From contig BTUM01000002.1 in the NCBI GenBank assembly GCA_045863235.1, positions 1-64,000 of the forward strand: a DNA stretch of 64,000 bases, read 5' to 3'. The notes under the pieces were generated by a model. The model searched no databases, had not been told where the DNA came from, and saw nothing but the letters and a program-made list of their open reading frames with translations. Origin of the DNA: Candidatus Xenobia bacterium (GTDB lineage Bacteria; Vulcanimicrobiota; Xenobia; Xenobiales; QWHO01). Shown one piece after another: positions 8,973 to 62,111 of the stretch (positions are counted from its first letter, which is position 1; every line of letters begins with the position of its first letter). The translations under genes and the position numbers were made by a program.

Positions 8973-9641
8973 ATGCACCACCATCGCAGCCGCTCGGCCT
9001 ATCTGGTCTGGAGCCTGACCTTGATGGTGTTGCTCGCGCCGTTCTTCGTCGAGACCCCGCATCTGAGCCATCACCTGATCGCCCGCATTCTCATCACCAT
9101 CGGACTTGCGGCCGGCGTCTACGCGGTCAGCCACGATCGCGGCCACCTCATCCTGTGTGGAATCCTCATGCTGGCCACGGTGGTGCTCTCACTTTGCATG
9201 ATATGGTGGCCGGTGCGAGCAATGATCATCGCCAACCTGATTCTCGGGGCGGTGCTCTACTTCGTGCTGGCCCTGTTGCTGGTGCAACACATCATGCGCA
9301 CGCGCAGGGTCACGGCTGACACGATCTATACCTCGGTGGCTGGCTACCAGCTGCTGGTGGCGGGCTGGGCGGCCCTCTACTTGCTGGTGGCGGTGGTCGA
9401 GCCGGGCTCCTTCACGGGCAACCTGCACCCCCACCCGCCACTGCCTTTCAACTTCTTTGAGGCGCTCTACTTCAGCACCACCACGCTGACGTCGGTCGGA
9501 TATGGGGACATCATCCCCGTGTCCCCCATGGCGCGCGCACTGGCGGTGGTGGAGATGTGGATGGGGGCCCTCTATCCGGCCGTGCTGATCGCGCGACTTG
9601 TAGGGATGTACTCGGGCCCGTCCGAGACAGGCTCGATTTAA
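8973..9641 (+). CDS. Potassium channel family protein
   Basis: Multiple TMs; LYFSTTTLTSVGYGDIIP selectivity filter. Confidence 0.88.
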   Translation: MHHHRSRSAYLVWSLTLMVLLAPFFVETPHLSHHLIARILITIGLAAGVYAVSHDRGHLILCGILMLATVVLSLCMIWWPVRAMIIANLILGAVLYFVLALLLVQHIMRTRRVTADTIYTSVAGYQLLVAGWAALYLLVAVVEPGSFTGNLHPHPPLPFNFFEALYFSTTTLTSVGYGDIIPVSPMARALAVVEMWMGALYPAVLIARLVGMYSGPSETGSI

Positions 9642-10405
9642 CGCTGGGCCCAGCTGGGCGGCGGCGGCGGGGTTGCGTCACCTTCCTGGGCCTGCTGCTG
9701 CTGGGGCGCAGGCTGATTGGAGCCAAACTGTACCGGAGCGGTCGGAACGGCACCGAACTGGGCCGGCGACGGCGTATTGGACCCGAACTGGACCGGTGGC
9801 GAGGCAAGCGGACCGGAAACGAGCTGCCCCTGAGTCTGAGCCTGCACGGGCTGGGTGGTCGGCGCCTGCCAGGTCTGCCCCTGGGTCGGCGGCTGGAACT
9901 GCGTCGGGGGCGGCTGCTGCCCGCCCTGATTGCGTCCACCCATGGCCTCTTTGGCCCACAGGAAGGTTGCCACCGGGCCAGCCACCAGCAACGGCAGAGC
10001 CAGTAACCCGGTGATCCCGTCGCCCATCCCGGCGGCCGAAGCCAGCCCGGAGGCCAGGGCGCTGAAGGCGGCCACCCGGGCCGACTTGTCCAGCATTCCC
10101 TTGTCCTTCAAAGCGCTGAAGCTGCCGTCCTTGCTGGCGAAGGTAAGCGCCACCGCAGCCACGCCGCCCAGCGCGACCGGCAGTCCGAGTAAGCCCAGCA
10201 CCCCCTCCGAGGCACCCGCCGCATAGGCCAGCAGGAGCGCCGTGGCACCCACGGCCGTGCCCCGACTGACCAGATCCACGGTGGCGGGGCGTCCGCTGGG
10301 AACGTATCCGTCCGTCGGCTCAGGTGCCCCCTGGGCCGGGCCCTGGGTCCGATAACCCTGAGGGTTCCACTGGTTGGCGGATACTTGAGCGGTGGTGACG
10401 TTCAC
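9638..10405 (-). CDS. Hypothetical membrane protein with low-complexity N-terminus and Q/P-rich tail
   Basis: GGAGG RBS before GTG; about 4 hydrophobic segments; repeated PVQFG in the tail. Confidence 0.7.
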   Translation of the reverse strand: MNVTTAQVSANQWNPQGYRTQGPAQGAPEPTDGYVPSGRPATVDLVSRGTAVGATALLLAYAAGASEGVLGLLGLPVALGGVAAVALTFASKDGSFSALKDKGMLDKSARVAAFSALASGLASAAGMGDGITGLLALPLLVAGPVATFLWAKEAMGGRNQGGQQPPPTQFQPPTQGQTWQAPTTQPVQAQTQGQLVSGPLASPPVQFGSNTPSPAQFGAVPTAPVQFGSNQPAPQQQQAQEGDATPPPPPSWAQR

Positions 10406-10438
10406 GGCGGAGCCTCCAAAAGTTGCTTGTCTGTGAAC

Positions 10439-10471
10439 AATCTACCGCCGGGCACTGAAAGAGAGCTGAAC
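10439..10471 (-). promoter_or_regulatory. TTTCAGG direct-repeat promoter
   Basis: GTTCAGC-tctc-TTTCAGT-N9-TAGATT upstream of 10405. Confidence 0.65.
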
Positions 10472-10894
10472 TCAATCGGTGTGCAAGATGACCTGAAACT
10501 CCTGGCAACGGGGGCAGATCCCCATGACCACGCCGCAGTCAAAAAAGCCCCCGTCCTCGTACCGATCGCACTGGCCCAGGTGGAAAGCGTTGCCGCCGCA
10601 CTTGGAGCAGCGGGGATCCTCGCGCTGACGGGGGGCCGAGCCGTCGCTGCGCACCTCGAGGTGGCGCGTCTCGCGCTGGCACTCGACACAGCGGACGAAC
10701 ATGGCCCCGATGAAATCCATCTCGTCGCTGGTAGGCTCGTGCTCCAGGCGCGGGATCAAGACCGTCTCGCCGCACGGACACTCCACCAGGCAGAAGCTGA
10801 AGGTCACGTCGCTGGAGGCCCTCCCCTCCCCCAGTCGTTCCCCGGTGGCCTGGCTGAGCACTCTCCAGGCCTCGTTTCTCTCCATGCGTGCCAC
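10472..10894 (-). CDS. Cys-rich hypothetical protein (putative zinc ribbons)
   Basis: CPCG, CVEC, CSKCG, CPRC motifs. Confidence 0.6.
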   Translation of the reverse strand: MARMERNEAWRVLSQATGERLGEGRASSDVTFSFCLVECPCGETVLIPRLEHEPTSDEMDFIGAMFVRCVECQRETRHLEVRSDGSAPRQREDPRCSKCGGNAFHLGQCDRYEDGGFFDCGVVMGICPRCQEFQVILHTD

Positions 10895-10932
10895 TCCCAG
10901 GAAGGTTAGTCGGGAGGTGGAATTCCCAACCG

Positions 10933-11739
10933 ATGCTCGCTCCCCTGCCCGTCGACCGACGCCAGAACCTGAGCTACGAAGAGTTCACCGCCGAGTATGC
11001 GGTACCCAACCGACCGGTCATCCTGGAGAACCTGACCGCCGAGTGGCCCGCCCAGAAACTCTGGACGCCCGACTTCTTTCGCGTTCGCTACGGCCACCTG
11101 CGGGTCACCGTATCACGGGCCGCCCGCAAGACCGAGTTACCGGTCACCATGAGCCTGGATGAATATGTTCGCTATTTGCAGGCAACCACCGAGAAGCGGC
11201 CCTGGTATCTCACCAGCTGGGATTTCACCGCCGCGGCGCCCGAGCTGAGAAACGACTTCAGCCTGCCGCGCTATTTCGCCGAGGATTTCATCGCCGAGTT
11301 GCCGGAGGCGGTGCGCCCGCGGCTGCTCTGGCTCTTCATGGGGCCACCCGGCTCAGGCTTTCGCATGCACGTGGACGTGGGTCACACGGCCGCCTGGAAC
11401 GCCCAGCTGATCGGACGCAAAGAGTGGATCTTGTACGCACCCGATGAGGCGGAGAACGTTTATCAGGGCCGGGCCGACGCCTTCAGCCCCGACCTGGAGC
11501 GCTTCCCTCGCCTGAAGCAAGCGCAGGCACGCACGGCCACGCTCGGCCCCGGCGACGTGATCTTTACCCCCAGTTGCTGGTGGCACCAGACCAGAATCCT
11601 GGAGACCAGCCTCTCGCTGACCGGCAACTACGTCAACCACACCAACCTGGCTCTGGTCCTGGAGTATCTGAGGGGGCAACCGGATACCCTCGAGCTGGCC
11701 GAGCAACTCGAGCGCATCGCTCAGCTCCAGCCGAAGTAA
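10933..11739 (+). CDS. JmjC/cupin-8 Fe(II)/2-oxoglutarate oxygenase (JMJD6-like)
   Basis: NRPVIL, WLFMGPPGSGFRMHVD, GRKEWIL, PGDVIFTPSCWWHQ (HxD...H triad). Confidence 0.88.
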   Translation: MLAPLPVDRRQNLSYEEFTAEYAVPNRPVILENLTAEWPAQKLWTPDFFRVRYGHLRVTVSRAARKTELPVTMSLDEYVRYLQATTEKRPWYLTSWDFTAAAPELRNDFSLPRYFAEDFIAELPEAVRPRLLWLFMGPPGSGFRMHVDVGHTAAWNAQLIGRKEWILYAPDEAENVYQGRADAFSPDLERFPRLKQAQARTATLGPGDVIFTPSCWWHQTRILETSLSLTGNYVNHTNLALVLEYLRGQPDTLELAEQLERIAQLQPK

Positions 11740-12827: not shown

Positions 12828-12860
12828 AGTTTATTCGGGTGGCCTGAAAGGAACTTGAAG
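12828..12860 (-). promoter_or_regulatory. TTTCAGG direct-repeat promoter, probably leaderless
   Basis: CTTCAAG-ttcc-TTTCAGG-N9-TAAACT-N6-ATG(12821). Confidence 0.7.
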
Positions 12861-12886
12861 CCTTGCTGGTCAATCAGCCCCGCCTG

Positions 12887-15800
12887 ATGGCGATCGCAAT
12901 CGTAGGCATGGGAGCGGTGCTTCCCGGAGCCAAAAGTCTCGAGGAATTCTGGCAGAACCTGGCAGCCGGCCGCTCGGCCGCGCGCGAGGTTCCAGCCTCG
13001 CGCTGGGCCTTCCAACCCGAGGTGGGAAAGGGTCCCGACCAGGTGGCCTCGCGCATTGCCTGCCTGCTCGACGAGCTGCCCGGCGGTCACCCCGACCCGG
13101 TCTGCCAGCTTGCCCTGGCGGCCGGGCGCCAGGCCTTCGCCCAGGCCCGCACCGAGGGACTGGATCGCTCCCGGGTCGGGGTTATTCTGGCCTCCATGGC
13201 CCTGCCCACCGAGCTCTCCTCGGCCCACAGCTTGAGTGTGCTCGAGCGGGGCCAGGGTCGGCCCGAGGACCGCGCCGCCGTCAGCCTGCCCGCGGCCGAG
13301 TTGGCACGCGATCTGGGACTGGGCGGCGGCAGCTTCACCCTGGATGCGGCCTGCGCCAGCAGCCTGTACGCCCTCAAGTTCGCCTGCGACGAGCTTGTGA
13401 GCGGGCGGCGCGACGCCATGCTGGCCGGCGGCCTGAATCGCTCCGACAGCCTCTACACCCAGATCGGCTTCACCGCCCTGCAGGCCCTGAGCTCGAGCGG
13501 CGTGTGCCGGCCCTTCGACCGGCGCGGGGACGGCCTGGTGGTGGGGGAAGGAGCCGCCGTCTTCCTGCTCAAGCGCCTGAAGGACGCGCGCCGCGACGGC
13601 GACCGGGTGCTGGGCATCATCCGCGGCATCGGCCTGTCGAACGATACGGGCGGCAGCCTGCTGGCGCCCGACGCGGAGGGCCAGCTACGAGCCATGCGGG
13701 CGGCTTACCGGCAGGCTGGCTGGAGCCCCGGCCAGGTCGACCTGGTGGAGTGCCATGGCACCGGCACCGCCGCGGGCGATCAGACTGAGCTGCTGAGCCT
13801 GCGCGAGATGTGGGGCGACGAGCCGCGAGGTTGCGCCATCGGCTCGGTCAAGTCGATGATCGGGCACCTCTTGACCGGCGCCAGCGCGGCTGGCCTGGTC
13901 AAGGTGCTGCTGGGAATGCAGCACGAGACGATCCCTCCCCACCTGAACTTCGAGCAGCCACTTCCTGCACTGGAAGGCTCTCCCTTCGTGGTGCCGACCC
14001 GAGCGGAGAGCTGGCCACGGAGGGCCCCGGACGTGCCTCGCCGGGCAGCCGTGAGCGGCTTCGGCTTTGGCGGCGTCAATGGCCACTTGCTGCTGGAAGA
14101 GGACCTGGGCCAGGAGGTGCCCGAGCCCCCCGGCAAGCCCTCCCACCCCATCGCCATCGTAGGCCTGGGTGCGCACATCGGCCCCCACACCCATCGTGAC
14201 GCCTGGCTGCGGGCCGCTCTCAAGGGCGAGTCGGCGGCCGGACGGGTGGGCGAGGTCGCCCTCCCGGTCGGCAAGTTCCGGGTGCCTCCCCACGATCTGC
14301 CCTCGCTTTTGCCCCAGCAGCTCCTGATGCTGAACGTGGCCGCTCAGGCGGTGGAGGACGCTGGCCTGGAGCTGAACGGCCCCCAGCCCTCCATGGGGAC
14401 CTACATCGGTGTGAGTCTCGATGCGGAGACCAACAACTACCACCATCGCTGGGTGCGCGGACCCCAGGTGCATCCCGCCCTGGACTCCACCCGCACCCTG
14501 GGAGCCCTGGCCAGCATCGTGGCCAGCCGCGTGGCCCGCGAGCTCTCGCTGGGCGGGCCCAGCTTCAGCCTGTCGGCCGAGGAGGTATCCGGTCTCAAAG
14601 CCCTCGAGCTGGCCGTGCGCGCCCTGCAGCAGGGCGAGCTGGACTGCGCCCTGGTGGGGGCGGTGGATCTTTATGCCGACCCGCGCTCGCTGCACGCTCA
14701 CAAGCAGCTCTTCCCCTCCCTGCCGGCCGGCGAGGGGGCTGTGGCCCTGGTCTTGAAGCGGCTCGGCGATTGTGCCCCGGACCAGAAGATCTACGCCCTG
14801 ATCGGAGGTGTGGGCGCGGCCAACACGCCCAGGCTGGCCCTGGAGCGCAGCGGAGCCAGCGGCTTCTCGCTTTTCGATGGCCCCGAGCTGCCTGCCGCCG
14901 ACCGTCTTTGCGCCGTCACCGAGCTGAGCGACCACCTGGGCGCGGTCACCGGCCTGGCCGCCCTGGCCCGGGCGGCCGCCTGTCTCTACCACCAGCTGCT
15001 GCCCGCCGGACCGGCCGGGGCCCGAGTCGAGGAGCCCCTGCACGTGACCCGCGAGCCCCTCTACTGGTTCCGCGATCGGATCCAGGGCCCACGCCGGGCC
15101 GCAGTGGCCTATCCGGCTCGCGACGGCAACGCGATGGCGGTCATGCTCGAAGGGCTCGAGCAGCCACCTCCGCGCCTCTACGATCTGCCCGCCGCCATCT
15201 TCTGCTTCGCTCCCGACCAGATTCCCGCGTTGCGGGCCCGGCTGGCCGAGGACTTCACCTCCCTGGCTCGCTCCTGGCAGGGCCAGCCCATCTTTGCCTG
15301 CGTGGCTTCCAGCCCGGCCGGCCTGAAGGACGCCCTGGACCTGGCCGAGCAGCACCTGGAGCGCCACCGGGAGGTCCCCTTACGGGGCCAGAGCGGCCTT
15401 TTCTACGCTCCGACGCCCCTGGGGCAGGGTGAGGTGGCCTTCGTCTATCCCGGCTCGGGTAGCCACTTCCTGGGGATGGGCCGCGAGCTGGCGCGCAGCT
15501 TCCCCGAGCTGGTCCACGCCCTGGACCAGGAGACCGAGGAGCTCTCCACCCACTTCATGACCCGCTACTACACCCCCTATCGGGGCGATTTTGGCCCCGA
15601 CTGGCGCGAGCTGGCGCGGCGTGACATCGAGGCAGATCCCCATCACATGATCTTTGGCCAGGTCTGTTTTGGCATTCTGGCCACCCGGGTCGCCCTGGCG
15701 CTGGGCCTCACAGCCCAGGCGGCGCTGGGCTACTCGCTGGGGGAGTCGTCCGCCCTCTTCTCGCTGGGCGCCTGGACCGAGCGAGACCTGATCTACCGGC

Positions 15801-19244: not shown

Positions 19245-19277
19245 TTTCTGAATTTGGTAAGAGCCCGGGGTTACTCT
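19245..19277 (+). promoter_or_regulatory. Degenerate direct-repeat promoter
   Basis: TTTCTGA-attt-GGTAAGA-N9-TACTCT; same spacing, weaker second repeat. Confidence 0.4.
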
Positions 19278-19312: not shown

Positions 19313-20869
19313 ATGCTCGCGATGAACCTGACCCCGTCGCCCGCCCTGCGGCTGGCGATGTCTCGGCCCGTGGCCGCCCAGAACCCGGCCGAATGGCTGA
19401 AACCGGTGGACACCCCTCCGGCCACGGAAGGCAAGAAACTGGTGGCGCGCGAGAGCGAGGGCGACAAGACCATCATCTGGGAGCGCGACGACCAGGGCGT
19501 GGTGACAACCCCCGACTCCAACCTGGCGGCCGGCGGCACGCCGATGCAGAAGGTGGGCCGCTGGCTCTCCAACAAGCTGGTGCCCGAGAACTACAAGGTG
19601 GCCTGCAGCCCCGACTACCCGGCCACCCGGGCCTGGCAGCTGGTGCGTGACTATGCCGGCTCGATGGCCGGCACGGCTGCGGTCGGGTGCGTCATGGGCA
19701 GCGTGACCGGCGCCACCACCGCCCTGCTGGCCCTGGGCTGGGGGGCGGTCAACTTCGCTAACATGAACAACCTCAAGGACCGCGTCGGTCAGGTGACCAG
19801 TTTCCTGGCCACCCCGCTGGCCATTCGGGCCGAGCGCAACCCCCGTCCCTGGATGATGGCCGGCGATGTCTGCCAGCACGTCTGCACGGCCATGGACGCG
19901 GCCGTAGCCGTGGCTCCCCCCTTGCTCTACTTCCCGATCCTCACTGTCAGCACCACCCTGCGCTCGATTGCAGGAGCCGTTTCGGGCGCAGCCAGCGCCA
20001 ATATCGGACCGCGCCAGGCCATCAAGGGAAATCTGGGCGAGGTCAGCGTCAAGAACGCCAACCAGGGCAACGCCGCCACCATGGCCGGCGCGCTCACCAC
20101 CCCTCTCGTCGTGGGCGGCCTGACCAGCTACTTCGGGGCCACCGGCGCCCAGGTGACCGCCGCCCTGGCCGGGGACCTGACCGCCCTGGCCAGCGTAGGC
20201 CACGCGGTCGCCCTGGCCGGCCTGGTCACCGTGGGAATCGGAGCCGCCCTGGGCCTGTTTGCCAACTATATGATGCTCAAGAACCTGGATTACAACCCGG
20301 TCAACGAGCCCGCCCTGCGCGCCATCGTCAACCACATGGAAGAAAACCAGGGCCAGATCTGCAAGCCCGACCCCTCGGTGCTGCAAGCCATGGGCACCCT
20401 GGTCGGATGCGAGAAGCTGGTGGTGGGAGACCGCATCAAGCCCATCCTGGAGGATCCCGAGTTCGAGACCCTGCGCGAGCTCTACAAGGACCGCCCCTAT
20501 ATCCTGCGCTACACCGAAGCTCAGCCTTACATCGTGATGAAGACCGACGAGCGCTTTGCCCAGAGCCAGACCCCCACCGTGACCACCACCACCCTGCCTC
20601 ACAACACCGACTACCTCAATCGGATGGGCCAGGTCCAGGCGGCCATCCAGGCCATCCACGGCGAGCGCCTGGTCGCCTCGCCCGAGTACCAGGAGAAGCT
20701 CGCCTCGGGAGGGCACAGGGAGGCCGACCGCTGGCTGCTCGAGGAGAGCCTGAAGAAGACTCCCCGGAACGTCGAGCCCTTCTTGCTCAAGCTGCAAGAG
20801 GCCGGCTGGAGCGTAGACCTCCTGCGCCTGCGGGGCAAGGATCGACCCACGGTGTTCGAGGAAAAGTGA
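19313..20869 (+). CDS. RUS1/DUF647 (root UV-B sensitive) family membrane protein
   Basis: LVPENY...SPDY...WQ, LKDRVGQ, NPRPW...GD, IAGAVSGAASANI, GNLGEVSVKNANQ parallel the eukaryotic RUS motifs (recalled, not searched). Confidence 0.72.
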   Translation: MLAMNLTPSPALRLAMSRPVAAQNPAEWLKPVDTPPATEGKKLVARESEGDKTIIWERDDQGVVTTPDSNLAAGGTPMQKVGRWLSNKLVPENYKVACSPDYPATRAWQLVRDYAGSMAGTAAVGCVMGSVTGATTALLALGWGAVNFANMNNLKDRVGQVTSFLATPLAIRAERNPRPWMMAGDVCQHVCTAMDAAVAVAPPLLYFPILTVSTTLRSIAGAVSGAASANIGPRQAIKGNLGEVSVKNANQGNAATMAGALTTPLVVGGLTSYFGATGAQVTAALAGDLTALASVGHAVALAGLVTVGIGAALGLFANYMMLKNLDYNPVNEPALRAIVNHMEENQGQICKPDPSVLQAMGTLVGCEKLVVGDRIKPILEDPEFETLRELYKDRPYILRYTEAQPYIVMKTDERFAQSQTPTVTTTTLPHNTDYLNRMGQVQAAIQAIHGERLVASPEYQEKLASGGHREADRWLLEESLKKTPRNVEPFLLKLQEAGWSVDLLRLRGKDRPTVFEEK

Positions 20870-27870: not shown

Positions 27871-27890
27871 GGCGAGCGGCGCTCAGTTAG

Positions 27891-27917
27891 AGTGCAAGGC
27901 CTATGGTCTTGCACTTT
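27891..27917 (+). terminator. Probable intrinsic terminator
   Basis: agtgcaag-gcctatggt-cttgcact followed by a short T run. Confidence 0.55.
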
Positions 27918-28028
27918 ACAACTCGCTGGAACGCAGTTCCGGCGGGTTCGTCAGATAATGTGCAATACTCCCTCGCATTGACTGTGCGATGAATTCTCAA
28001 CAGGTTGAACACCAAAGCGCGAGCACAT

Positions 28029-30067: not shown

Positions 30068-31204
30068 ATGGAGGTTCCTGACCAGAAGAACCTGTTCGTG
30101 CTCGGCGCCCTGGAGCGCAACGTTTCCATCTACCTGCAGCAGGTGCGGGCCCTCAACCTGGCCTGGGATCTGGGGCGGCGCGGCCCGGTGGCCGTCATCG
30201 GAGGGGGGTTCGCCGGCCTCACGGCGGCCGCCGGGCTCACCGCACTGGGCACCCGGGCGGTGGTCTTCGAGCGCCAGGACCAGCTGCTCAAGCTCCAGCG
30301 GGGCAATCGGGTGCGCTGGATCCACCCTCACATCCACGAGTGGCCCCGCCCCGGCGCGGAGGATCCACGCGCCGGGCTGCCCTTGATGGACTGGCAGGCC
30401 GGTTACGCCGGCGACGTGGCCGAGAGCCTGCTCGCCCAGGTCGACTTCGAGGTGCGCCTCAACTCCCGGGTGACCCTGGAGACCGGCTGGAAAGTCAACG
30501 CCGAGAGCTTCGAAGCGGTCATCCTGGCGGTGGGGCTGGGGGTGGAGAAGACCTTTGGCAACCTGCCCTTGCTCTCTTACTGGCTCGACCGCGACATCGA
30601 GGCAGGTGGGCGTGTCTTCATTTCCGGGTGCGGCGAAGGTGGGCTGATCGACGCACTCTACCTCAAGCTGACAGACTTCCGCCACGACCGGGTCGTCAGC
30701 GAGTGCCTGAGCGGCCTGGACGAGCTGAAAGCCCGCCTGCTCGAGCTCGAGGATGGCCTGGAGAACGCCGATCCTGTCGAGGCAGGGCAGAAGCTGACCA
30801 GGGCTTACGCAACCCTGGCCGTGCCCGAGAAGGTGGACGCGTGTCTCGCCGCCCGCCTGCGCAAAGATACCGACGTGGTTCTGAACAGCCCGAGCAGCCA
30901 CTTTCTTACCAACAAGGCAGACATTCTCAACCGCTTTCTGATCAGCCGGCTGCACCGGATGGGAGCGGTGGCCCACGTCCCGGGCAAGCTCCAGAGCATC
31001 GAACCAGAGGGAGAGCGTTGGCGAGTTCAGCTCGATACCGGGCTGGACGAGCCCTACGATCGCGTGCTCGTCCGCCACGGCACCGTGCCGGCCCTCAAGT
31101 CGGAGTTCGCTCGCTGGTGGGAGCCCTATCTGGCCGTGCGTAAGGAACGCCCCTTCGAGGTTCCGGTGCCACGCTTTCAGTTTTCTTTGGGCCGCCACAG
31201 CTAA
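30068..31204 (+). CDS. FAD/NAD(P)-dependent oxidoreductase
   Basis: VAVIGGGFAGLTAA, RWIHPHIHEWP, ISGCGEGGLID, VLVRHG. Confidence 0.8.
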   Translation: MEVPDQKNLFVLGALERNVSIYLQQVRALNLAWDLGRRGPVAVIGGGFAGLTAAAGLTALGTRAVVFERQDQLLKLQRGNRVRWIHPHIHEWPRPGAEDPRAGLPLMDWQAGYAGDVAESLLAQVDFEVRLNSRVTLETGWKVNAESFEAVILAVGLGVEKTFGNLPLLSYWLDRDIEAGGRVFISGCGEGGLIDALYLKLTDFRHDRVVSECLSGLDELKARLLELEDGLENADPVEAGQKLTRAYATLAVPEKVDACLAARLRKDTDVVLNSPSSHFLTNKADILNRFLISRLHRMGAVAHVPGKLQSIEPEGERWRVQLDTGLDEPYDRVLVRHGTVPALKSEFARWWEPYLAVRKERPFEVPVPRFQFSLGRHS

Positions 31205-31207
31205 CCT
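31175..31207 (+). promoter_or_regulatory. TTTCAGG direct-repeat promoter, probably leaderless
   Basis: TTTCAGT-tttc-TTTGGGC-N9-TAACCT-N6-GTG(31214). Confidence 0.62.
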
Positions 31208-31213
31208 GGCAGA

Positions 31214-32086
31214 GTGAGGATCCCTACCCTGACCGGTCCGGTTTCATTCCAGGAGATGCGCTCGACCCTGGATGCGCGTATGACCGAGTGCGCCGCGCAA
31301 ATCGAAAAAGACCTCCCCGCCTGGGATCAGCTCACCCGCGAGAAGCTCGATGCGGTCAGCGAGCTGGCCTGCTCGCTCTCCCCCACCAACTCAGTCGAGG
31401 TCAAGCAGAGCATGCGCACCGCTCTGTGGGAGCTTCGTCAGGCCCTGGAGGCGGGCGCGGCCGAGTCGCTGGGCGCTCACCCGGGCAGCCGTCCCGAGGT
31501 GCGCAAGGCGCTCGAGAAAGTGCGTACCATCGCCCTGGACAACTCCTTCGAGGGGGCCGCTCGTTTCCCCAGGGAAGTTGTCGGCGTGCGCTGCGGCATC
31601 GACGCCATCCCCAATTTTCGTGAGGCGTCCCCGGGCATTTACCGGGGCGGCCAGCCCACCCAGGAGGGCGTGGACTGGCTGATCGCCCGCGGAGTCAGGA
31701 CGGTGGTGGACCTGCGTGGCTCTGATCAGCACAGTCCCTTCTGCCAGTGGGATCCGCCCAGCTGGAAGGGTGTGCAGCACGTCAATATCCAGGTGGAGGA
31801 CTACCAGACCCCCAGCCATGAGGAGTTGGCCCGGTTCATCACTCTGGCCGACCAGGCCTCGCCCGACAACCCGATGTTCTTGCACTGCAAGGCCGGCATC
31901 GGCCGCACCGGCACCATGATCGCCTGCTGGCGCATCACCAGGGGTTGGACCGCCGAGGAGGCAGTCCAGGCCGAGCGGCTGCACTCCTACGACGCCAGCT
32001 TCCGCCAGGAAGAGTTCGTGCGCAATTTCGAGCAACTCTGGAAAAGTGGCCAGTTTGCAGGAAAAATGGCCGCTGTTAACGACTAG
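31214..32086 (+). CDS. Cys-based dual-specificity/tyrosine phosphatase with helical N-terminal domain
   Basis: PNFREASPGIYRGGQP, VVDLR, HCKAGIGRTG (CX5R). Confidence 0.9.
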   Translation: MRIPTLTGPVSFQEMRSTLDARMTECAAQIEKDLPAWDQLTREKLDAVSELACSLSPTNSVEVKQSMRTALWELRQALEAGAAESLGAHPGSRPEVRKALEKVRTIALDNSFEGAARFPREVVGVRCGIDAIPNFREASPGIYRGGQPTQEGVDWLIARGVRTVVDLRGSDQHSPFCQWDPPSWKGVQHVNIQVEDYQTPSHEELARFITLADQASPDNPMFLHCKAGIGRTGTMIACWRITRGWTAEEAVQAERLHSYDASFRQEEFVRNFEQLWKSGQFAGKMAAVND

Positions 32087-32122: not shown

Positions 32123-32584
32123 GTGATACAGTTCGAATCTCCCGCACAAAAGGCGACCTTCGAGAAGATCGTCCCCTGGATGAAAGACCTCTTCGGCTCC
32201 TTTGCCGGCCAGCGCGAGGACGCGCCTGCCTTCAGCGTCTCGGTCGGCTCAGCCATGGCCCTCACTATGGTCTACCCCTGGCGCGATGAGGAGGCGGTCA
32301 TCTCCACCCGGGCCTGGGTGGTCACCGGCGCCGAGCTGACCCCTGAGTTGATGCACTATCTGCTCCGCGAGAACGACCGCATGAGCTTTGGAGCCTTCGG
32401 CATCGATCCCGACGGGGACATCTTCTTCGAGCACACCATCCTGGGCTCGACCTGCGACCAGCCCGAGCTGAAGAGCTCGGTGCTCTCGGTCGTGCTGGTG
32501 GCCGACGAGTATGACGACGAGATCGTCTCGCGCTGGGGCGGCCAGCGGGCCATCGACCGGGTGGCCAAGACGGCTCCGGCCTAG
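32123..32584 (+). CDS. YbjN / type III chaperone (CesT)-like protein
   Basis: Small acidic protein; LLRENDRMSFGAFGIDPDGDIFFEHTI, ADEYDDEIVSRWGG. Confidence 0.75.
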   Translation: MIQFESPAQKATFEKIVPWMKDLFGSFAGQREDAPAFSVSVGSAMALTMVYPWRDEEAVISTRAWVVTGAELTPELMHYLLRENDRMSFGAFGIDPDGDIFFEHTILGSTCDQPELKSSVLSVVLVADEYDDEIVSRWGGQRAIDRVAKTAPA

Positions 32585-39568: not shown

Positions 39569-41317
39569 TCAGGCTTTCTCGAAGTCGATAAAGCCCTTCT
39601 CGACGTTGGTGCCGGTCAGGCGCACCGTCATCTGTTGGCCATAGCGTCCACTGCCGTCGAGCTTTCCTTCGATCGGCATTTCCAGCAGGCGCACCCAGGT
39701 GCCCTTGTCGTTGGCGCCCGAGACGATGGCGTCGAAGGTCTCGCCGATGCGGTTCTGCAGCAACATCGCCGCAGCCGACTTCTGAATCTGGCGCTCGACC
39801 TTCTGGGCGTTCCCTTCTTGCTCGGTGCATCGGGTCGTCAACTCGCTCAGCTCAGCTTTGGTATAGCCCCAGTCCTTCTCGGTGGGGTTGGTGATACCCG
39901 CCGCCACACAGGCCTGAGCGGCCTTCAAGAGACGCTGGGTAATGACGTCGGGATAACGGCGATTAGGAGCCGTCGAGTGCGAGTAATCCTTGACGGCCAG
40001 TCCGAAGTGACCCACGGGCTCCTCGCCCGGGAACTGCACCACATACTCGCCCCGGCCGAGCAGCTTGACCACGTTCAAAGACAGATCGGGGAAGCGCAGA
40101 GGATCGTTTGCCCTCTCGCCCTCGAGGAACTGCTCGAGAGCGGCCGAATCGGGCTTGTCGGGCAACTCGTATCCCTTTTCGGCAGCGATATCGACGATCT
40201 TGTCCCAGTTCTTGGGCTCGCGCACGATGCGCTGGATGGTGGGGAAGCCGGCCTGGGTGAGGAACTTGGAGGCGCAGCCGTTGGAGGCTACCATCAGGTT
40301 CTCGATCAGCTCGGTGGCCAGGTTCTTCTCCGTCTTGTTGAGGTCCTTAACGGCCCCATCCTCCATCTTGGCCTTGGCCTCCTGCGACTCGAGCTGCAGT
40401 GAGCCGTTGCGGCGGCGCACTTCCTTGAGGGCCTGGGCCACCCGGCTCTGCGACTGGAGAGCAGCTGACACCTCGTCGCGCCCGTCCAGGGCTTTGGGGC
40501 GCTCGCCGCTGCCCTCGAGCCACTTGCCGATGCTGTCGTAGTTCAGAGCCACCTTGGAATTCACCATCGCCGGGTAGATGTCGAATTTTGTGACCTCACC
40601 CTCGGGGCTGATAATCATCTCGGTCACCATGGCCTGGCGGTCCACGCCCGGATTCATCGAGGTCAGGTTCTCGGAGAAGTGAGGGTCGATCATCGGGTAG
40701 ATTTTGTCGGCCGTGTAGACGGTGGTCGTATTCTTCTGGGCCTGCTTGTCGGGAGGGGAATTCTTGGGCATGAGCGCGTCCACGTCGGCGATGGCCACGT
40801 AGACCCTGGTGAACCCGTTGGGCAGGTCCTCGGAGGCCGAGAGCTGGTCGAGGTCCTTGGAGGTGACCACCTCACCGTAGCCGTTGTCCACCGAGCACCA
40901 GTTGAGGTGGCGCAGGTCCTTGATCTCGGGATTGAACGCGGGCTGTTGGATGGCCTTGATGAAAGCTGCCGCCTCACTGGAGTAGGTAGGGGTCAGGCCC
41001 TTCTCCGTCATGGCTTTGTCGGCCAGGACCTTCAGGTCGTACGTCTTGCCGCTGGCCGCCATGACCCCGATAGCGGCCTGGGTGCCCCCCACCCCCGCCG
41101 CTCCGATCTCGCCGTAACGACTGGACTCGCTCTGGGCCCGCTCGCGACCGCGATTGCTGCGCTGTTGCTGTTGAGGCCCGCGGGGCCCCCGCTGCTCTTG
41201 CGTGTTGTTCCCCGGACGATACCCGTCTTGAGGCCCCTGGTTCTGTCGATTCTTGCGATTCTTGCGCCCCGCCTCGACGGGGGCGGTGAAGGGGATCGAG
41301 GCCATGTTCACTTGCAT
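39569..41317 (-). CDS. RNB-domain exoribonuclease (RNase II/R family) with Q/R-rich N-terminal extension
   Basis: SVDN...SKDLDQ, VAIADV, IENLMVASN, HFGL...YSHSTAPNRRYPD; alternative TTG start at 41341. Confidence 0.9.
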   Translation of the reverse strand: MQVNMASIPFTAPVEAGRKNRKNRQNQGPQDGYRPGNNTQEQRGPRGPQQQQRSNRGRERAQSESSRYGEIGAAGVGGTQAAIGVMAASGKTYDLKVLADKAMTEKGLTPTYSSEAAAFIKAIQQPAFNPEIKDLRHLNWCSVDNGYGEVVTSKDLDQLSASEDLPNGFTRVYVAIADVDALMPKNSPPDKQAQKNTTTVYTADKIYPMIDPHFSENLTSMNPGVDRQAMVTEMIISPEGEVTKFDIYPAMVNSKVALNYDSIGKWLEGSGERPKALDGRDEVSAALQSQSRVAQALKEVRRRNGSLQLESQEAKAKMEDGAVKDLNKTEKNLATELIENLMVASNGCASKFLTQAGFPTIQRIVREPKNWDKIVDIAAEKGYELPDKPDSAALEQFLEGERANDPLRFPDLSLNVVKLLGRGEYVVQFPGEEPVGHFGLAVKDYSHSTAPNRRYPDVITQRLLKAAQACVAAGITNPTEKDWGYTKAELSELTTRCTEQEGNAQKVERQIQKSAAAMLLQNRIGETFDAIVSGANDKGTWVRLLEMPIEGKLDGSGRYGQQMTVRLTGTNVEKGFIDFEKA

Positions 41318-41351: not shown

Positions 41352-41384
41352 AGTGTAAGGACGGACCCTCAAAGCCTCCTGAAA
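41352..41384 (-). promoter_or_regulatory. TTTCAGG direct-repeat promoter
   Basis: TTTCAGG-aggc-TTTGAGG-N9-TACACT. Confidence 0.7.
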
Positions 41385-45222: not shown

Positions 45223-46322
45223 GGGTCCTCCATTGCCTCGGTCAGCGACTCGGGCGTACGGGCTCGGGGGTTTACCTGGAGGCTCTGCACGCTGAAGGTC
45301 AGTCGGTCGGCCTGGCCCAGGCCGTGCTGGCCGTCGATTCGACCGCCGACTATCCGGTCGAACTGCCCTTCGGCCAGGTCGGAATGAGCGACGTGATGCC
45401 TTATCCCTCTCGCACCTGGAGCAGTCTCAGCCAGGATGAGCTGGAGCTCTATGCTTCGATCTTCAACGATCGCCTGGCCCAGGCGGTAAACCTTTTTCAG
45501 CCCGATGTGCTGCACTGCCACCACCTCTGGTTGATGACCGCCCTGGCCCGACAGCAGTTCCCTGATCTTCGAGTGGTAGCTTCCTGTCACGGGACCGATC
45601 TTCGCCAACTGGCACTGGCCCCCCAGGTCGCCCCGAGAGTTCTCCCCTGGTTGAAAAAACTCGATGCCGCCTTCGCCCTTCACGCTCCCCAGGCCGAAGA
45701 GCTGATCCAGCGGCTGAGCCTTTCTCCCCAACGGGTTCACGTGGTGGGCTCGGGATTTGCCCAGGAGCGTTTTCAGCCTCCCACCGAGCGCTTGCCTGGA
45801 CCGCCCCGCGTACTGTACGTAGGCAAACTCAGTCGCGCCAAGGGTGTGCCCTGGCTGCTGGAGGCCGTGGATGGCCTGAGCATCGACCTGACCCTGGTGG
45901 GAGGGGGCGATGGTCCTGAGGCAGACGAGATTCGAGCTCGAGCCGGCTCGAGGGCCGCCGGCGTGCTGAGCGTCGAGAATCTGGTGCAGGCCTTTCAACG
46001 GGCCGACGTCTTCGTGCTGCCGAGCTTCTCCGAGGGGTTGCCGCTTGTGCTTCTGGAGGCTCTGGCCTGCGGCTGCCGAGCGGTGATCAGCGACCTGCCC
46101 GGCCTGCCCGAGTTCGCACCGGAATGGGTGAGACTGGTCCCCCTTCCTCGCCTGATCGGGCCGGATAACCCGGTCGATGCCGACCTGCCCGAGTTTGTGG
46201 CCAACCTGCGAGCGGCCATCGAGGCCCAGTGCGCCCGGCCGCGCTCACTCGAGCGTGCCCCGGGAGTGGCGGCCTGGAGCTGGAGCGCCGTCTTCCACTC
46301 GATACTCCGCCATTACAGCTAA
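45219..46322 (+). CDS. Glycosyltransferase family 4, probable CTG start
   Basis: HCHHLW, HGTD, YVGKLSRAKG, EGLPLVLLEALACG; N-terminal RVLHCLGQR..TGSGVY in frame with CTG 45219. Confidence 0.9.
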   Translation: MRVLHCLGQRLGRTGSGVYLEALHAEGQSVGLAQAVLAVDSTADYPVELPFGQVGMSDVMPYPSRTWSSLSQDELELYASIFNDRLAQAVNLFQPDVLHCHHLWLMTALARQQFPDLRVVASCHGTDLRQLALAPQVAPRVLPWLKKLDAAFALHAPQAEELIQRLSLSPQRVHVVGSGFAQERFQPPTERLPGPPRVLYVGKLSRAKGVPWLLEAVDGLSIDLTLVGGGDGPEADEIRARAGSRAAGVLSVENLVQAFQRADVFVLPSFSEGLPLVLLEALACGCRAVISDLPGLPEFAPEWVRLVPLPRLIGPDNPVDADLPEFVANLRAAIEAQCARPRSLERAPGVAAWSWSAVFHSILRHYS

Positions 46323-46426
46323 GGCGTCGCGCGTTGAACACTTCAGGAATTCGCGCGGCGCCGTTCAACAGATTGTCTACACTCCCGCGCGTTCCAATTC
46401 TGAAAAGGTCAACGCGCGGGAGTGTA
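46317..46426 (+). repeat. 110-bp hairpin-rich dispersed repeat, copy 2
   Basis: Reverse complement of 28029-28138; differences mostly in loops. Confidence 0.88.
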
Positions 46427-47898: not shown

Positions 47899-48843
47899 TC
47901 AGGGAACGGTAGCGTAGACCTCATCCTCGTCGTCTGGCTTGCTGTTGGTGAAGATGTCCACCAGTTGGATGGTCTGGGCCACTCCCCCGATGGCCAGGCC
48001 AAGCAGGCTGCCGTCCGAGAAGACATAGGACTTGCCGAATTCCGACAGCAGGCCTGCCGGCAGGGCGCCCAGGCAGCCGGCCAGAGCCGGCGACAGAGGT
48101 TTCTTCACGATTCCCGCCCGGCGGGCTCCGCTCTCCATGGCCCCACCCAGGTCGTGGCTGACGTTGCGGATCAACTGGCCAAAGCGCGGGCCCACCACCG
48201 GCCCCACCGCGCCGCCCAGGGCGCTGGAGGCGACCATGAGGGCGGGAGGGACCGGGCTGGCGCCCAGCGCACCGAAAACGACCGCCAGGCCCGCGCCCAG
48301 GCCGGCGCCCAGAGCGGCCCGGGCGGCCGGGTGGAGGTCGGCTCCGTAGCGGGATGCCAGGGCGCTGGCCACGCCCCCGGTTGCCTTGGAGGCCCCTGGC
48401 AGAAAGAGGCCCGAGGCCACTGCGCCCATGTCACTCGCATCGCGCACTGAGGCGGTAGCCGCGCCGCCCAGCGTGGCAAAGCAGCCCAGCAAGCCTCCGG
48501 CCACGGTGCGCGAGACCAGTTCGGGCTGGCTGGTCAGATAGGCTACTCCAGCCCCGAGAGCCGCTCCCACCGCGATTCCCGCGGCCATGCCGGCCACCGC
48601 GTTGCCGGTCCGGCGCTCGGTCCAGATGCCTACCGTGCTGGCCAGGCTGGCGCTCAGGGCCCCCGACAGGCCGCCCATGGCCAGACCCTCGACAGCGCCG
48701 CCGATGGCTGCCTGGACATAGGAGGCTTCGGGCAGGTCGCCATGGGTGTGGGCGGCAGGACGCGACTTCTGGTCGAGCCACTGCCAGGCTCCGGTCGGAG
48801 GCCCTAACGGACGGGAAGGCAACTGCACGCTATCCATCCTCAT
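47899..48843 (-). CDS. Gly/Ala-rich (glycine-zipper-like) membrane protein
   Basis: Repeated GxxxG hydrophobic helices, polar N-terminal leader, acidic tail. Confidence 0.7.
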   Translation of the reverse strand: MRMDSVQLPSRPLGPPTGAWQWLDQKSRPAAHTHGDLPEASYVQAAIGGAVEGLAMGGLSGALSASLASTVGIWTERRTGNAVAGMAAGIAVGAALGAGVAYLTSQPELVSRTVAGGLLGCFATLGGAATASVRDASDMGAVASGLFLPGASKATGGVASALASRYGADLHPAARAALGAGLGAGLAVVFGALGASPVPPALMVASSALGGAVGPVVGPRFGQLIRNVSHDLGGAMESGARRAGIVKKPLSPALAGCLGALPAGLLSEFGKSYVFSDGSLLGLAIGGVAQTIQLVDIFTNSKPDDEDEVYATVP

Positions 48844-48857
48844 CGCATCGAGGATAG

Positions 48858-48875
48858 CCTGAAAGAAGCCTGAAA
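48858..48875 (-). promoter_or_regulatory. Perfect TTTCAGG-N4-TTTCAGG direct repeat
   Basis: TTTCAGG-cttc-TTTCAGG 14 bp upstream of ATG 48843; no good -10 at the usual N9 position (TATCCT lies 1 nt downstream). Confidence 0.6.
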
Positions 48876-55000: not shown

Positions 55001-55033
55001 TGTTTCCCACGCGGAGCGGAAAATTCACTGAAA
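55001..55033 (-). promoter_or_regulatory. Degenerate direct-repeat promoter
   Basis: TTTCAGT-gaat-TTTCCGC-N9-GAAACA (weak -10). Confidence 0.4.
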
Positions 55034-60747: not shown

Positions 60748-60865
60748 CCGAACCTCCGATCCGACTCCGGTGCTGCCGGGACCGAGGTCATCGTAATTTG
60801 CCGGATGGTTACAGATGTAAACAGAGTGTTAACAAATGGAAACGGGGATCGATTTTGTTACCGGC

Positions 60866-61213
60866 TTATGAACGGCCGGTCAGAGCGCGCAGATCCTCGC
60901 GATCCAGGGGAGCGCCCTTGAGCACGGACAGGAACTTGTGGATGCGCCGGCGGATGTGCTCGGCGACCCAGCCGATGGCCGCACCCCAGGCGATCCCGAT
61001 GACGAGCAGATAGGGAGGCTCGGAGGGGCAGAAGAGCATGGTCAAAATGGCGCTGGAAGCAAAGCCCAGAGCCAATCCCAACTGTACCAGGGCGGGAACG
61101 GTCAAACGTCGGACCTTTTTGCGGACCACGGGCCGGGCCAGGCCAGGCCGCTGGCGCTGGGCCTCCTCGAAGGCCAGCTTGTTGGCGTAATAAGTATAGA
61201 CATTGACCGTCAT
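60866..61213 (-). CDS. Small two-TM hypothetical protein
   Basis: Two hydrophobic helices; preceded by the repeat promoter. Confidence 0.65.
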   Translation of the reverse strand: MTVNVYTYYANKLAFEEAQRQRPGLARPVVRKKVRRLTVPALVQLGLALGFASSAILTMLFCPSEPPYLLVIGIAWGAAIGWVAEHIRRRIHKFLSVLKGAPLDREDLRALTGRS

Positions 61214-61219
61214 AACCCG

Positions 61220-61252
61220 AGTTTAGGAAAGCGACCTGAAAGCTCGCTGAAA
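61220..61252 (-). promoter_or_regulatory. TTTCAGG direct-repeat promoter, probably leaderless
   Basis: TTTCAGC-gagc-TTTCAGG-N9-TAAACT-N6-ATG(61213). Confidence 0.72.
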
Positions 61253-61258
61253 CAGAAT

Positions 61259-61291
61259 GTTCAGTTTTCTTTGAGCAGGGGATGGCAGTTT
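61259..61291 (+). promoter_or_regulatory. Direct-repeat promoter (divergent partner)
   Basis: GTTCAGT-tttc-TTTGAGC-N9-CAGTTT-N7-ATG(61299). Confidence 0.52.
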
Positions 61292-61298
61292 GGGAGAG

Positions 61299-62111
61299 AT
61301 GGAGATCAAGTCCCCTTCTCGCGAGCTGATCGGTCAGGCCCTGCGGGCCCAGAGCGCCGAGCTGCTTCGCACTGGCCAGGTCGCCGAGGCCACGCGAGTG
61401 CAGCAAGACCTGACCGTTTTGTCAGGAGCACCCGGCGACAGTCTTTACGACAAGCACTTTGAAGCCAGCGAGCGCGCTCGGGCTACCTGGCCCAAGCATG
61501 AGAGTGTAGCAGCCTCCTGGAAGGCCAGCCCGGCATTCTTTGGGGCCGAGCTGGTGGGGGCCGCCGGGCTGGCAGCAGCCTGGCTCTTTCGCCACGAGCC
61601 GATCGTGGCCGGCGCTGGTCTGGCTGTCACCGCCGGGGTGGCTGCTCTGCACGTGGTCTACCAGGTCAAAGCCCGCCGGCGCAGCCAGGCTCAAGCCGTT
61701 CTGCAGGCCATCGCCCGCCGACAGGACGCGATCTGCAACTTCGTTCCCAGCAATGCGCCCACACCATTGAACATCGAGCGCAACGCCTTCATGGCCACAT
61801 TGAAGGGTCAGGAGGCCCGTCTAGTCGAGAACCGCGACTACGCCGGCGCTGGGAACCTGCGCCGGCTGCGCGAGGGCCTCGAGCCTGTGCCCGGGCAGAC
61901 CGTGGATGAGCTGTTCGAGAATCTGCTTCAGGATGGATCGCGCAAGGAGACCCTGCAGCTCTTGCAAGGGGACTGCAGCCAGCAAGTCTTCGAAGGCCTC
62001 AGAGCCCTGGCCGAGGTGGTCAAGCTGACCTCTCCCGGTCAGGGCGGGCTCCAGGATGGCGCCGACTCGGTGGTCGTGGGCGGCGTGGTCATCCGCAAGC
62101 GCGCGGCGTAA
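61299..62111 (+). CDS. Hypothetical two-TM protein with internal duplication
   Basis: Segments ELIGQALRAQSAELL...PGDSLYD and NAFMATLKGQEARLV...PGQTVDE resemble each other; C-terminus DSVVVGGVVIRKR. Confidence 0.68.
   Translation: MEIKSPSRELIGQALRAQSAELLRTGQVAEATRVQQDLTVLSGAPGDSLYDKHFEASERARATWPKHESVAASWKASPAFFGAELVGAAGLAAAWLFRHEPIVAGAGLAVTAGVAALHVVYQVKARRRSQAQAVLQAIARRQDAICNFVPSNAPTPLNIERNAFMATLKGQEARLVENRDYAGAGNLRRLREGLEPVPGQTVDELFENLLQDGSRKETLQLLQGDCSQQVFEGLRALAEVVKLTSPGQGGLQDGADSVVVGGVVIRKRAA

Follow-up and report, generated by a model that had tools for sequence, protein, structure and literature searches.

A promoter-defined set of N-terminally tagged proteins and a candidate non-motile, flagellum-derived type III apparatus in a Candidatus Xenobia genome

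In this study, we analyzed a 64,000-nucleotide stretch of DNA from a Candidatus Xenobia bacterium (contig BTUM01000002.1, positions 1 to 64,000, referred to here as the window), in which a number of genes between 9638 and 62111 lie behind the same repeat promoter and encode proteins with unusual N-terminal leaders. The window is C2:1-64000 of the source genome G000 (8.36 Mb, 97.6% complete). The promoter was found upstream of 360 distinct genes genome-wide, many of whose products bear an uncleaved N-terminal tag resembling that of flagellar export substrates, and a flagellar-type export cluster that has no flagellin gene and has lost motor features was identified in the same genome, outside the window. 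We regard it as likely, judging from the sequences, that the tagged proteins are exported through this apparatus, and as somewhat probable that the whole constitutes a non-motile, flagellum-derived type III system that delivers several hundred proteins into other cells. Our counts refer to 7142 genes called with a simple purpose-made codon-model caller, whose start positions are approximate, and to a class sample of 44 genomes and a phylum sample (Eremiobacterota/Vulcanimicrobiota) of 161. The genomes compared are metagenome-assembled and related genomes are not independent in any tally, which we count against our interpretation.

The promoter consensus is TTTCAG-N5-TTTCAG-N10-TAnnCT. Its direct repeat, TTTCAG-N5-TTTCAG, occurs in 56 copies, 53 of them in the intergenic DNA that makes up 12% of the genome, while spacers of four and six bases were found once and twice, respectively. 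The TAnnCT element ten bases 3' of the repeat emerged from a matrix grown on the repeat sites. At a threshold of at least 16 bits that matrix returned 375 sites, 363 with a gene behind them and 12 without, and five column-shuffled matrices gave 0–3 intergenic sites of at least 15 bits versus about 330 for the real one, the intergenic enrichment being partly circular since the matrix was trained on intergenic sites. The hexamer is followed after six to nine bases by the start codon (+39 to +42) at 226 of the 363 assigned sites, and the mRNAs of these genes are therefore probably leaderless. The 360 genes, hereafter the regulon, represent 5% of called genes, are spread over 108 of 166 contigs and are mostly single, as a tightly coupled gene follows 49 of the 360 versus 2243 of 6782 genes elsewhere. 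Relatives share the promoter: the strict pattern was present in 25 of the 44 class genomes (families f1, 4/4; f2, 16/16; f5, 3/3; f3, 1/19; f4, 0/1) with a reversed control giving none, and a looser pattern was at or near background in small gut genomes.

OmpR/PhoB-type activator boxes consist of a direct repeat whose period is 11 bp and which ends about 10 bp before a -10 hexamer, and the regulon motif fits this geometry in both respects. The genome has 26 matches to PF00486; among the winged-helix regulators inspected none lies clearly behind the motif, and no clear autoregulated activator was found among 22 regulators and five other loci inspected. A sigma-28 promoter was considered and rejected, the motif being off the consensus and FlgM being absent from the genome, although FliA-like genes do exist. 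Separately, several further abundant motifs were noted in intergenic DNA (AACA-N2-TTGT, TTAA-N7-TTAA, GTGC-N15-GCAC, AGTG-N17-CACT, GTAC-N16-TATA and TGTG-N17-CACA).

The tag is defined by position. We compared 359 regulon proteins of at least 60 residues with 6681 other genes. Signal-peptide-like cores were depleted in the regulon (21, or 5.8%, versus 1797, or 26.9%), which bears out the statement of an earlier sequence-only reading of the window that these proteins lack Sec signal peptides. Residue 3 is Ile or Val in 177 regulon proteins (49%) versus 913 others (14%), and the patterns [DE]-x-[VF]-x-[LI]-[SG] and D-[RG]-[FY]-x-[PS] occur in 14 and 5.6% of the regulon versus 2 and 0.4% of other genes; with a looser pattern (89 cases), this strand motif is positioned at residues 25–41. 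The motif PxDGYxP, which the sequence-only reading had singled out, is enriched (3/359 versus 1/6681) but is a minor variant of the wider strand motif and was merged with it, being too rare to be an export signal in its own right. In artificial controls the positional features were largely gone: Ile/Val at residue 3 was found in 176 of 356 regulon proteins versus 2–3% of off-frame, 11% of shuffled and 7% of intergenic translations, and the strand motif [DE]-x-[VFY]-x-[LP]-[SG] in 70 of 356 (20%) versus 0–2% in all three. Over all controls used, the ranges are 2–19% for residue 3 and 0–5% for the strand motif. Leaderless translation was ruled out as the source of the residue-3 bias. Regulon genes with a 5' untranslated region (UTR) keep the bias (40/100), while it is mostly missing from leaderless-type genes outside the regulon (46/237), and it is therefore no translation-start effect.

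The enrichment of the leader among motif-bearing genes genome-wide, which had been predicted from the window, is thus confirmed for residue 3 and the strand motif. The polar, P/S/Q-rich composition by which the leaders were first recognized did not survive as a mark, because non-coding and off-frame translations pass equally: P/S richness is found in 44% of leaders, 46% of translated intergenic DNA and 55–94% of off-frame DNA, the off-frame, shuffled and intergenic controls together spanning 37–94%. On its own, P/S richness is no evidence. That translated non-coding DNA reproduces this richness would suit an explanation in which the leaders are by-products of promoters inserted ahead of genes in GC-rich DNA and the export cluster is a decaying flagellar remnant. 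Against it stand the disappearance of the positional features off-frame and after shuffling, and a leader GC3 (0.80) close to that of the gene bodies (0.85).

The tag resembles features of known type III substrates. In Pseudomonas syringae, the relevant patterns (PMC3338616) are an aliphatic residue at position 3 or 4, no early acidic residues and Ser richness, none strictly required; they were found in 77, 64 and 38% of regulon proteins versus 55, 37 and 18% of others, which is an enrichment only, and all three together in 74 of 359 (21%) versus 314 of 6681 (5%). A likeness was also found with FlgM, a known substrate of flagellar export, in flagellated relatives (11 hits, two unreadable, starts picked by eye). 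All nine readable sequences have Ile/Val at residue 3, and around residue 40 most of them have a V-x-[LIV]-S strand. A tag classifier gave a cross-validated area under the curve of 0.888 at N-termini versus 0.587 at residue 100; it over-calls, with 16% of translated intergenic stretches scoring at least 0.8, a PIN-domain gene picked and high scores for frame-error open reading frames (ORFs) of family f15. In the export machinery, the short FlgJ, FliE, FliK and a small-protein paralog described below score 0.68–0.92 and the gate and ATPase proteins at most 0.18, the exceptions being FlgB, FlgF and the FlgE-like protein, which are low, and FliM and an FlhB-like fragment, which are high. The earlier suggestion that the leaders resemble those of type III/flagellar substrates is therefore upheld, in that their pattern is common to relatives' FlgM and genes of the export cluster. 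In relatives, the ORF behind the motif was readable at 13 of 21 sampled sites, and nine of the 13 score at least 0.67. Tagged genes outnumber the regulon, because 199 motif-less genes score at least 0.9 and many look alike by eye; this count is rough. The leader is accordingly enriched in the regulon, as the sequence-only reading had proposed, but is not confined to it, since it stands on several hundred genes without the motif.

Comparison of homologs indicates that the tag was added to otherwise ordinary enzymes, because most homologs of the window's exoribonuclease (RNase) and most tag-less paralogs lack the N-terminal stretch. Among the 120 best homologs of this RNase, 102 are at most 520 residues long and are without its first ~90 residues. 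The other 18 are extended at the N-terminus, and in most of them the same strand motif recurs; the QDGYRP of the window protein is replaced there by QDRFQP, SDRVEL, GDEVTL or VDQVSL. When 31 regulon proteins were compared with a tag-less paralog (chosen by low tag score), 19 were longer at the N-terminus by at least 15 residues and one was shorter.

The families of the putative cargo were surveyed in 140 of the 360 regulon proteins, picked by local density. A Pfam family was found in 46 and none in 94 (E≤1e-5 gave 29/80; E≤1e-8 gave 17/60). PQQ-type propellers (12), acyltransferases (5), lipid desaturases (2) and seven peptidases (M48 twice, C11, S51, C1, C26 and C92) were identified, along with single representatives of GDPD, endonuclease I, His phosphatase, WD40, VWA, amylase, AMP-binding, FKBP, AAA, aldolase and thioredoxin-reductase-like families. 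One or two hydrophobic segments occur in 125 of 360 regulon proteins versus 927 of 6782 elsewhere, and a glycine zipper in 14 regulon proteins versus 41 elsewhere. Many of the enzymes require substrates or cofactors found in the cytoplasm (RNase, HD-GYP, acyltransferases, desaturases, thioredoxin-reductase-like), and delivery into a cell is therefore favored. HD-GYP and RNase II point to a bacterial target, RUS1-like and WD40 proteins to a eukaryotic one.

The candidate export machine that the sequence-only reading could not place in the window is a flagellar-type cluster at C27:60.7-79.3 kb, with the order flgB flgC fliE fliF fliG-like fliG fliH fliI fliJ SLT fliK flgE/F-like fliM fliN fliN fliO fliP fliQ fliQ fliR flhB flhA. 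It includes the one full-length FlhA of the genome; flgF, flgG and a short flgJ lie apart on C74, and the export gate, ATPase complex, MS/C rings and rod are all present in the genome. FlhA, FlhB, FliP, FliQ, FliR, FliI, FliF, FliE, FlgB and FlgC pass flagellar NCBIfam cut-offs, and for the core export proteins Fli/Flh models outscore Sct models throughout, with FlhA, for example, scoring 815 bits to the flagellar model (cut-off 772) and 616 to that of SctV (cut-off 692). A FliK domain is retained, and the only hook-type gene in the cluster encodes a 271-residue FlgE/F/G-like protein.

What sets this cluster apart from a motile flagellum is the absence of its outer and rotating parts. Profile searches of the genome found no flagellin (PF00669), FlgI, FlgM, FlgD or MotB, and tblastn with FliC, FliD, FliS, FliW, FlgK, FlgL, FlgA, MotA and MotB of the flagellated relative G005 gave no match, a search that misses diverged genes (FlgB of G005 was unmatched although the genome has flgB) and carries less weight than the profiles. 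The sole MotA/ExbB match sits in a TonB-ExbB-ExbD-type operon. Two positively charged torque residues of FliG are lost in all eight cluster copies read and kept in both flagellar copies, and the CheY-binding FliM peptide LSQxEID is missing from all 10 full-length cluster copies and present in two of three flagellar-type copies.

Several other genes in the genome touch on this machinery. The cytoplasmic domain of FlhA occurs alone in five proteins (C80:28012-29436, C3:26973-28175, C1:377631-378854, C106:14866-16857 and C107:13658-15829), two of them also containing FliG_N domains and one matching the FlhB C-terminus weakly; these may be soluble adaptors that sort a large set of cargo proteins. 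At C94:8991-9908 there is a second FlgE/F-like gene, the start of which resembles a signal peptide, and before flgF, at C74:2384-4124, lie an FlhB C-terminal-like gene and a conserved-looking gene of 484 codons. The secretins of the genome belong to type II secretion system (T2SS) loci, type IV pilus loci and one short stand-alone secretin-domain gene (C70:35090-35977), a candidate for the missing outer-membrane pore.

The 3' end of the cluster adds a candidate filament. Behind flhA lie a conserved gene for a 104-residue helical protein, which could be assigned to no family with Pfam, Atlas, a PDB profile search or a search by fold (the best Z, 7.6, being among generic helical bundles), and then three genes for one 81-residue protein, identical despite 13–23 nucleotide differences; four further copies occur elsewhere in the genome. 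The 81-residue protein is predicted by modeling to be one long helix, and one or two longer paralogs that follow have the same helix at their end and the tag at their start (for instance M-I-I-S ... D-S-V-L-L-S, or D-E-V-T-L-S in G000), which holds for gut genomes lacking the promoter motif as well. Only the third small-protein copy of the cluster sits behind the motif. The small-protein family was found in 51 of 161 genomes (38/44 in the class, 0/80 in f15, 0/6 in genus g3). Pfam HrpA_pilin matches 13 of 64 family members, all below cut-off (best E 4e-4), and among Atlas features HrpA/HrpE-like clusters rank next (0.91 and 0.88), the 0.91 value resting on 180 features and the family being present on 23% of that cluster; a PDB profile search gave a chance match only. 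We treat these likenesses to HrpA as leads, not proof. RNA-library contigs from four libraries cover the small-protein and neighboring genes and were not used as evidence, because genes cannot be ranked by contig depth and some DNA may have been carried over.

After the longer paralogs there is often a LolA-like gene, whose product in relatives has a signal peptide, and in many genomes the small-protein genes are flanked by helical CxxC proteins (the U162/U166/U562 family; C27:41934-43622 and 52244-54279 here), of which there are about ten paralogs in the source genome. In two Acidobacteria-labelled records (L049:9073-10144 and L045:9728-10204) the small-protein helix is fused to other N-termini. 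In L049 the helix follows a leader of the double-glycine type, and its gene lies with others for similar short peptides next to transporter-like genes.

The machine without flagellin is widespread. FlhA was found in 42 of 44 class genomes and flagellin in 10, and in the phylum FlhA (E≤1e-150) was found in 147 of 161 genomes and flagellin in 51. By hand tally, 48 of 51 flagellated genomes have at least two FlhA, and 97 of 110 flagellin-less genomes, six of them single-contig, have at least one. As flagellin is missing while FlhA is kept across class and phylum, no assembly gap is responsible. FlgI (50/161) tracks flagellin, and 10 of the 11 class genomes with MotB are the flagellated ones. The gene order of the cluster is kept across several classes with intact frames and FlhA identities of 62–95%, and the machine persists in 2.4-Mb gut genomes. 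Such conservation, together with the three small proteins that are identical despite 13–23 nucleotide differences, weighs heavily against the remnant explanation introduced above; the fast-evolving and compositionally odd f15 cluster would agree with it, and we consider it very improbable.

Quick trees of FlhA (36 and 20 rows, with two SctV rows and no Myxococcales or Chlamydia rows) placed the cluster FlhA and a divergent sister form from f15/f20 in one clade (SH-aLRT 100), separate from the FlhA that goes with flagellin in this phylum (98–99) and from SctV. An AU test, based on the two SctV rows, did not reject a joint clade with SctV (p-AU 0.169), and a search for FlhA homologs returned close relatives only. 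From these sequences, an origin of the machine independent of the injectisome is likely. The f15 and f20 genomes (L092-L099, L101-L102) have a strongly diverged cluster of similar order, sister to the Xenobia form, in which no small-protein family was detected. A third, fast-evolving FlhA (62% to that of G000; L067, G010:C21) lies inside the flagellin-less clade in genus g3 and probably also in f4.

Together, these results suggest the following mechanism. A dimeric activator, of OmpR/PhoB-like type if the box geometry is a guide, would bind TTTCAG-N5-TTTCAG, with a sigma-70-type -10 element following after ten bases, and activate about 360 genes that are scattered and mostly single; two thirds of these would be transcribed as leaderless mRNAs. 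Many of the products would bear an uncleaved, FlgM-like tag, made up of M-x-I/V and, at residues 25–41, a strand of the D-x-V-x-L-S type, that may direct them to the second, presumably non-rotating flagellar-type apparatus formed by the C27 cluster and flgF-flgG-flgJ on C74. This apparatus would assemble a rod and then a thin filament of the 81-residue helical protein, possibly capped by the longer paralogs, with substrate specificity flipped via FliK/FlhB, and would deliver enzymes, along with proteins that insert into membranes, into the prey or host cell that it contacts.

A number of observations count against this mechanism. The machine operon itself is without the promoter motif, which is at background in the gut family f3 and in f4, both of which keep the machine. 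The regulon holds non-cargo (an MFS transporter, an HrpB helicase and Sec-signal proteins), so that the co-regulated arsenal proposed by the sequence-only reading stands as regards one promoter for 360 genes but is not made up of effectors throughout. No F-box, LRR, ankyrin or clear peptidoglycan-hydrolase family was seen in the 140 of 360 proteins scanned. The strict strand motif occurs in just 20% of the regulon, and all three P. syringae rules hold in 21%. The HrpA likeness is weak, under the Pfam cut-off and among chance matches, and the same helix is found beyond the phylum on proteins that are otherwise unrelated, some of which have Sec-type or double-glycine leaders. There is no recognizable translocon, and no outer-membrane ring or secretin in the cluster. 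Passage through the outer membrane, for which no part has been identified, is the weakest step.

That last point bears on an alternative in which the same tag and machine release cargo to the periplasm, surface or medium for scavenging, biofilm formation or envelope building, without injection. The lack of a secretin or L/P ring in the cluster fits release, as do the many hydrolases among the cargo families, the retention of the machine in 2.4-Mb gut genomes and, in Abby and Rocha (PMC3459982), Buchnera basal bodies as proposed secretion systems and secretin-less Myxococcales systems that may stop short of the outside. Much of the cargo, however, depends on substrates or cofactors of the cytoplasm (RNA, c-di-GMP, acyl donors, NADPH), digestion outside the cell is already served by a T2SS and Sec-signal hydrolases, and the FliK ruler, rod genes, lytic transglycosylase and multi-copy helical subunit speak for a built, length-controlled appendage. 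We consider release rather unlikely.

A second alternative accepts the regulon but separates the tag from the machine, so that tagged proteins would take another route (T2SS or type IV pili) or have an internal role, such as a developmental or stress programme, localization or turnover. The motif-less machine operon, the differing ranges of motif and machine, the presence of T2SS and type IV pilus loci and the housekeeping-like enzymes in the regulon could all be accommodated by it. It is improbable in our view, as T2SS cargo needs the Sec/Tat signals that are depleted here, the tag pattern is common to FlgM and genes inside the cluster, and tag-less housekeeping paralogs stand beside tagged copies. 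Nor were markers of other candidate export routes (type VI secretion (T6SS), eCIS and Tad) found: the genome gave no match to TssC/VipB or a contractile sheath, and the Tad marker RcpC was found in none of five genus genomes.

The genes and sites of the window on which the analysis began are as follows.

9638..10405, minus strand: 255-residue leader-bearing protein with hydrophobic Gly-rich segments, leader P-T-D-G-Y-V-P-S, no Pfam family
10439..10471, minus strand: promoter site (direct repeat and -10 hexamer), 29.5 bits
11721..12821, minus strand: 366-residue lipase-like alpha/beta hydrolase, leader D-R-V-D-P
12828..12860, minus strand: promoter site, 29.5 bits, start codon at +39, mRNA probably leaderless
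19245..19277, plus strand: weak promoter site, 15.5 bits, under the cut-off of 16
19322..20869, plus strand: 515-residue RUS1/DUF647-like protein with leader (PF04884, E 3e-20)
31175..31207, plus strand: promoter site, 26.9 bits, start codon at +39
31214..32086, plus strand: 290-residue dual-specificity Cys phosphatase (DSP-PTPase, HCx5R) with leader
32180..32584, plus strand: 134-residue TY-Chap1 protein (type III secretion system chaperone/YbjN fold), candidate export chaperone (PF22551, E 2e-13)
39569..41317, minus strand: 582-residue RNB exoribonuclease (RNB+S1), extra ~90-residue N-terminus with Q-D-G-Y-R-P-G
41352..41384, minus strand: promoter site, 22.7 bits
47899..48843, minus strand: 314-residue glycine-zipper-like protein with leader, no Pfam family
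48843..48875, minus strand: perfect direct repeat with TATCCT hexamer at +19 instead of +27 (atypical spacing), 16.2 bits
52075..54966, minus strand: 963-residue Macro + HD-GYP protein with long low-complexity N-terminus
55001..55033, minus strand: promoter site with poor -10, 17.6 bits
60866..61213, minus strand: 115-residue regulon protein, start codon at +39, no Pfam family
61220..61252, minus strand: promoter site, back to back with the site at 61259, 27.8 bits
61259..61291, plus strand: promoter site, 21.4 bits, start codon at +40
61299..62111, plus strand: 270-residue two-transmembrane protein with leader, no Pfam family

All eight leaders quoted in the sequence-only reading were located where it had placed them, each opening a full ORF in 9638-62111, and the promoter that it reported before their genes was recovered at 16 bits or more for seven, with the RUS1-like gene falling short at 15.5 bits. 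Of the cargo domains it named, Pfam supported DUF647/RUS1, DSP-PTPase, RNB+S1 and Macro+HD-GYP, while the lipase rests on an AFSMGG nucleophile motif and a sub-cutoff match to DUF7379. The gene at 60866..61213, the ninth motif-bearing gene of the window, and the TY-Chap1 gene directly 3' of the phosphatase gene were absent from its list; TY-Chap1 has five matches in the genome, two of which adjoin a tagged gene.

Other features of the window were also noted. A 2110-residue PUFA-synthase-like polyketide synthase (PKS; KS, AT and four FabA domains) at 12863-19195 is divergent from the lipase-like gene and has a short intergenic region in common with it. The back-to-back sites in 61220-61291 drive divergent genes, and comparable pairs occur in relatives. 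An FtsZ-family protein with an ~80-residue Pro-rich N-terminal extension lies at 62249-63541, and another FtsZ-like start at C8:90687. Two inverted copies of a 110-nt element are 94% alike (28029-28138 and 46317-46426), two copies of a 39-nt intergenic repeat are 87% alike (7532-7570 and 27887-27925), and a hairpin with 39-bp arms at 7667-7750 lies near a copy of the latter.

If the interpretation is correct, this system would represent a second flagellum-to-injector event or a living intermediate, with a bearing on how flagella became secretion machines. More broadly, and tentatively enough that we would call it possible, not probable, the Eremiobacterota may have a second, ancient type III system, either derived from a flagellum apart from the classical injectisome or a relative of its rod-bearing ancestor, with a pilin-like filament; large-genome Xenobia would deliver at least 500 tagged proteins (5–10% of the proteome) into prey or host under one master promoter, and gut members would keep the machine. 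Its retention in small gut genomes suggests an unrecognized parasitic or predatory role there. Several hundred candidate effectors with well-defined starts, two thirds without a Pfam family, would also form a large natural data set on the nature of the type III export signal, and the "motile/flagellar" annotation would be corrected for most genomes of the phylum. In Paoli et al., marine Eremiobacterota are predicted to be motile predators with "diverse secretion systems", and the first of 36 T3SS rows of their TXSScan sheet reads "no decision" (PMC9259500); for that predicted predation by large-genome members, our findings would supply a concrete mechanism. Yabe et al. describe a cultured Vulcanimicrobium strain with neither a flagellin gene nor flagella (PMC9758169). 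No published account of the cluster, tag or promoter was found in a search whose coverage mostly excludes the subscription literature.

The apparatus was compared with known systems. With the motile flagellum it shares its parts, in a Firmicutes-like order, and a cargo tag resembling relatives' FlgM; it differs in that the cluster has no flagellin, cap, hook-junction, hook cap, P-ring, stator or FlgM, has lost the FliG torque residues and the FliM CheY peptide, and forms a separate FlhA clade beside true flagella in 48 genomes. From injectisomes it is distinguished by the lack of an SctC secretin in the cluster, the retention of rod and switch genes, an SctV model score below cut-off and an FlhA that stands apart from SctV in the best trees (joint clade not rejected, p-AU 0.17). 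Plant-type Hrp systems have HrpA/HrpE pili and regulons behind a promoter box (hrp box, PIP box), and most have cargo in the tens. By inference, the present system would work like the plant-type Hrp T3SS, with one promoter motif over dispersed cargo, an uncleaved N-terminal tag, a small helical subunit of weak HrpA likeness and chaperone-fold genes; the difference is the several hundred cargo proteins here. According to Abby and Rocha, injectisomes arose once from the flagellum and flagella-like loci occur in a dozen non-flagellated species; their definition of a non-flagellar T3SS asks for a secretin in the cluster and leaves out flagellum-specific genes, of which flgB, flgC and fliE are present here (PMC3459982). 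The same text provides two further parallels. Buchnera basal bodies are likewise without filament and motor and have been proposed to secrete proteins (PMC3459982), but the present system is no reduced copy of a sole flagellum. As an old paralog it has been kept throughout a phylum with free-living and gut members, many of which also have working flagella, and it comes with a subunit family of its own and a large set of tagged proteins. The secretin-less and needle-less Myxococcales systems are similar in their secretin-less core and in free-living, probably predatory hosts; as described there (PMC3459982), they are without FlgBCDEK and FliEG and group with injectisomes, whereas the cluster here keeps FlgBC, FliE and FliG and adds a candidate filament subunit. 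By the criteria tested on its sequences, then, the apparatus appears to be neither a flagellum nor a member of the injectisome family, and its mode of action is very probably that of a type III secretion system that serves a very large set of tagged proteins.

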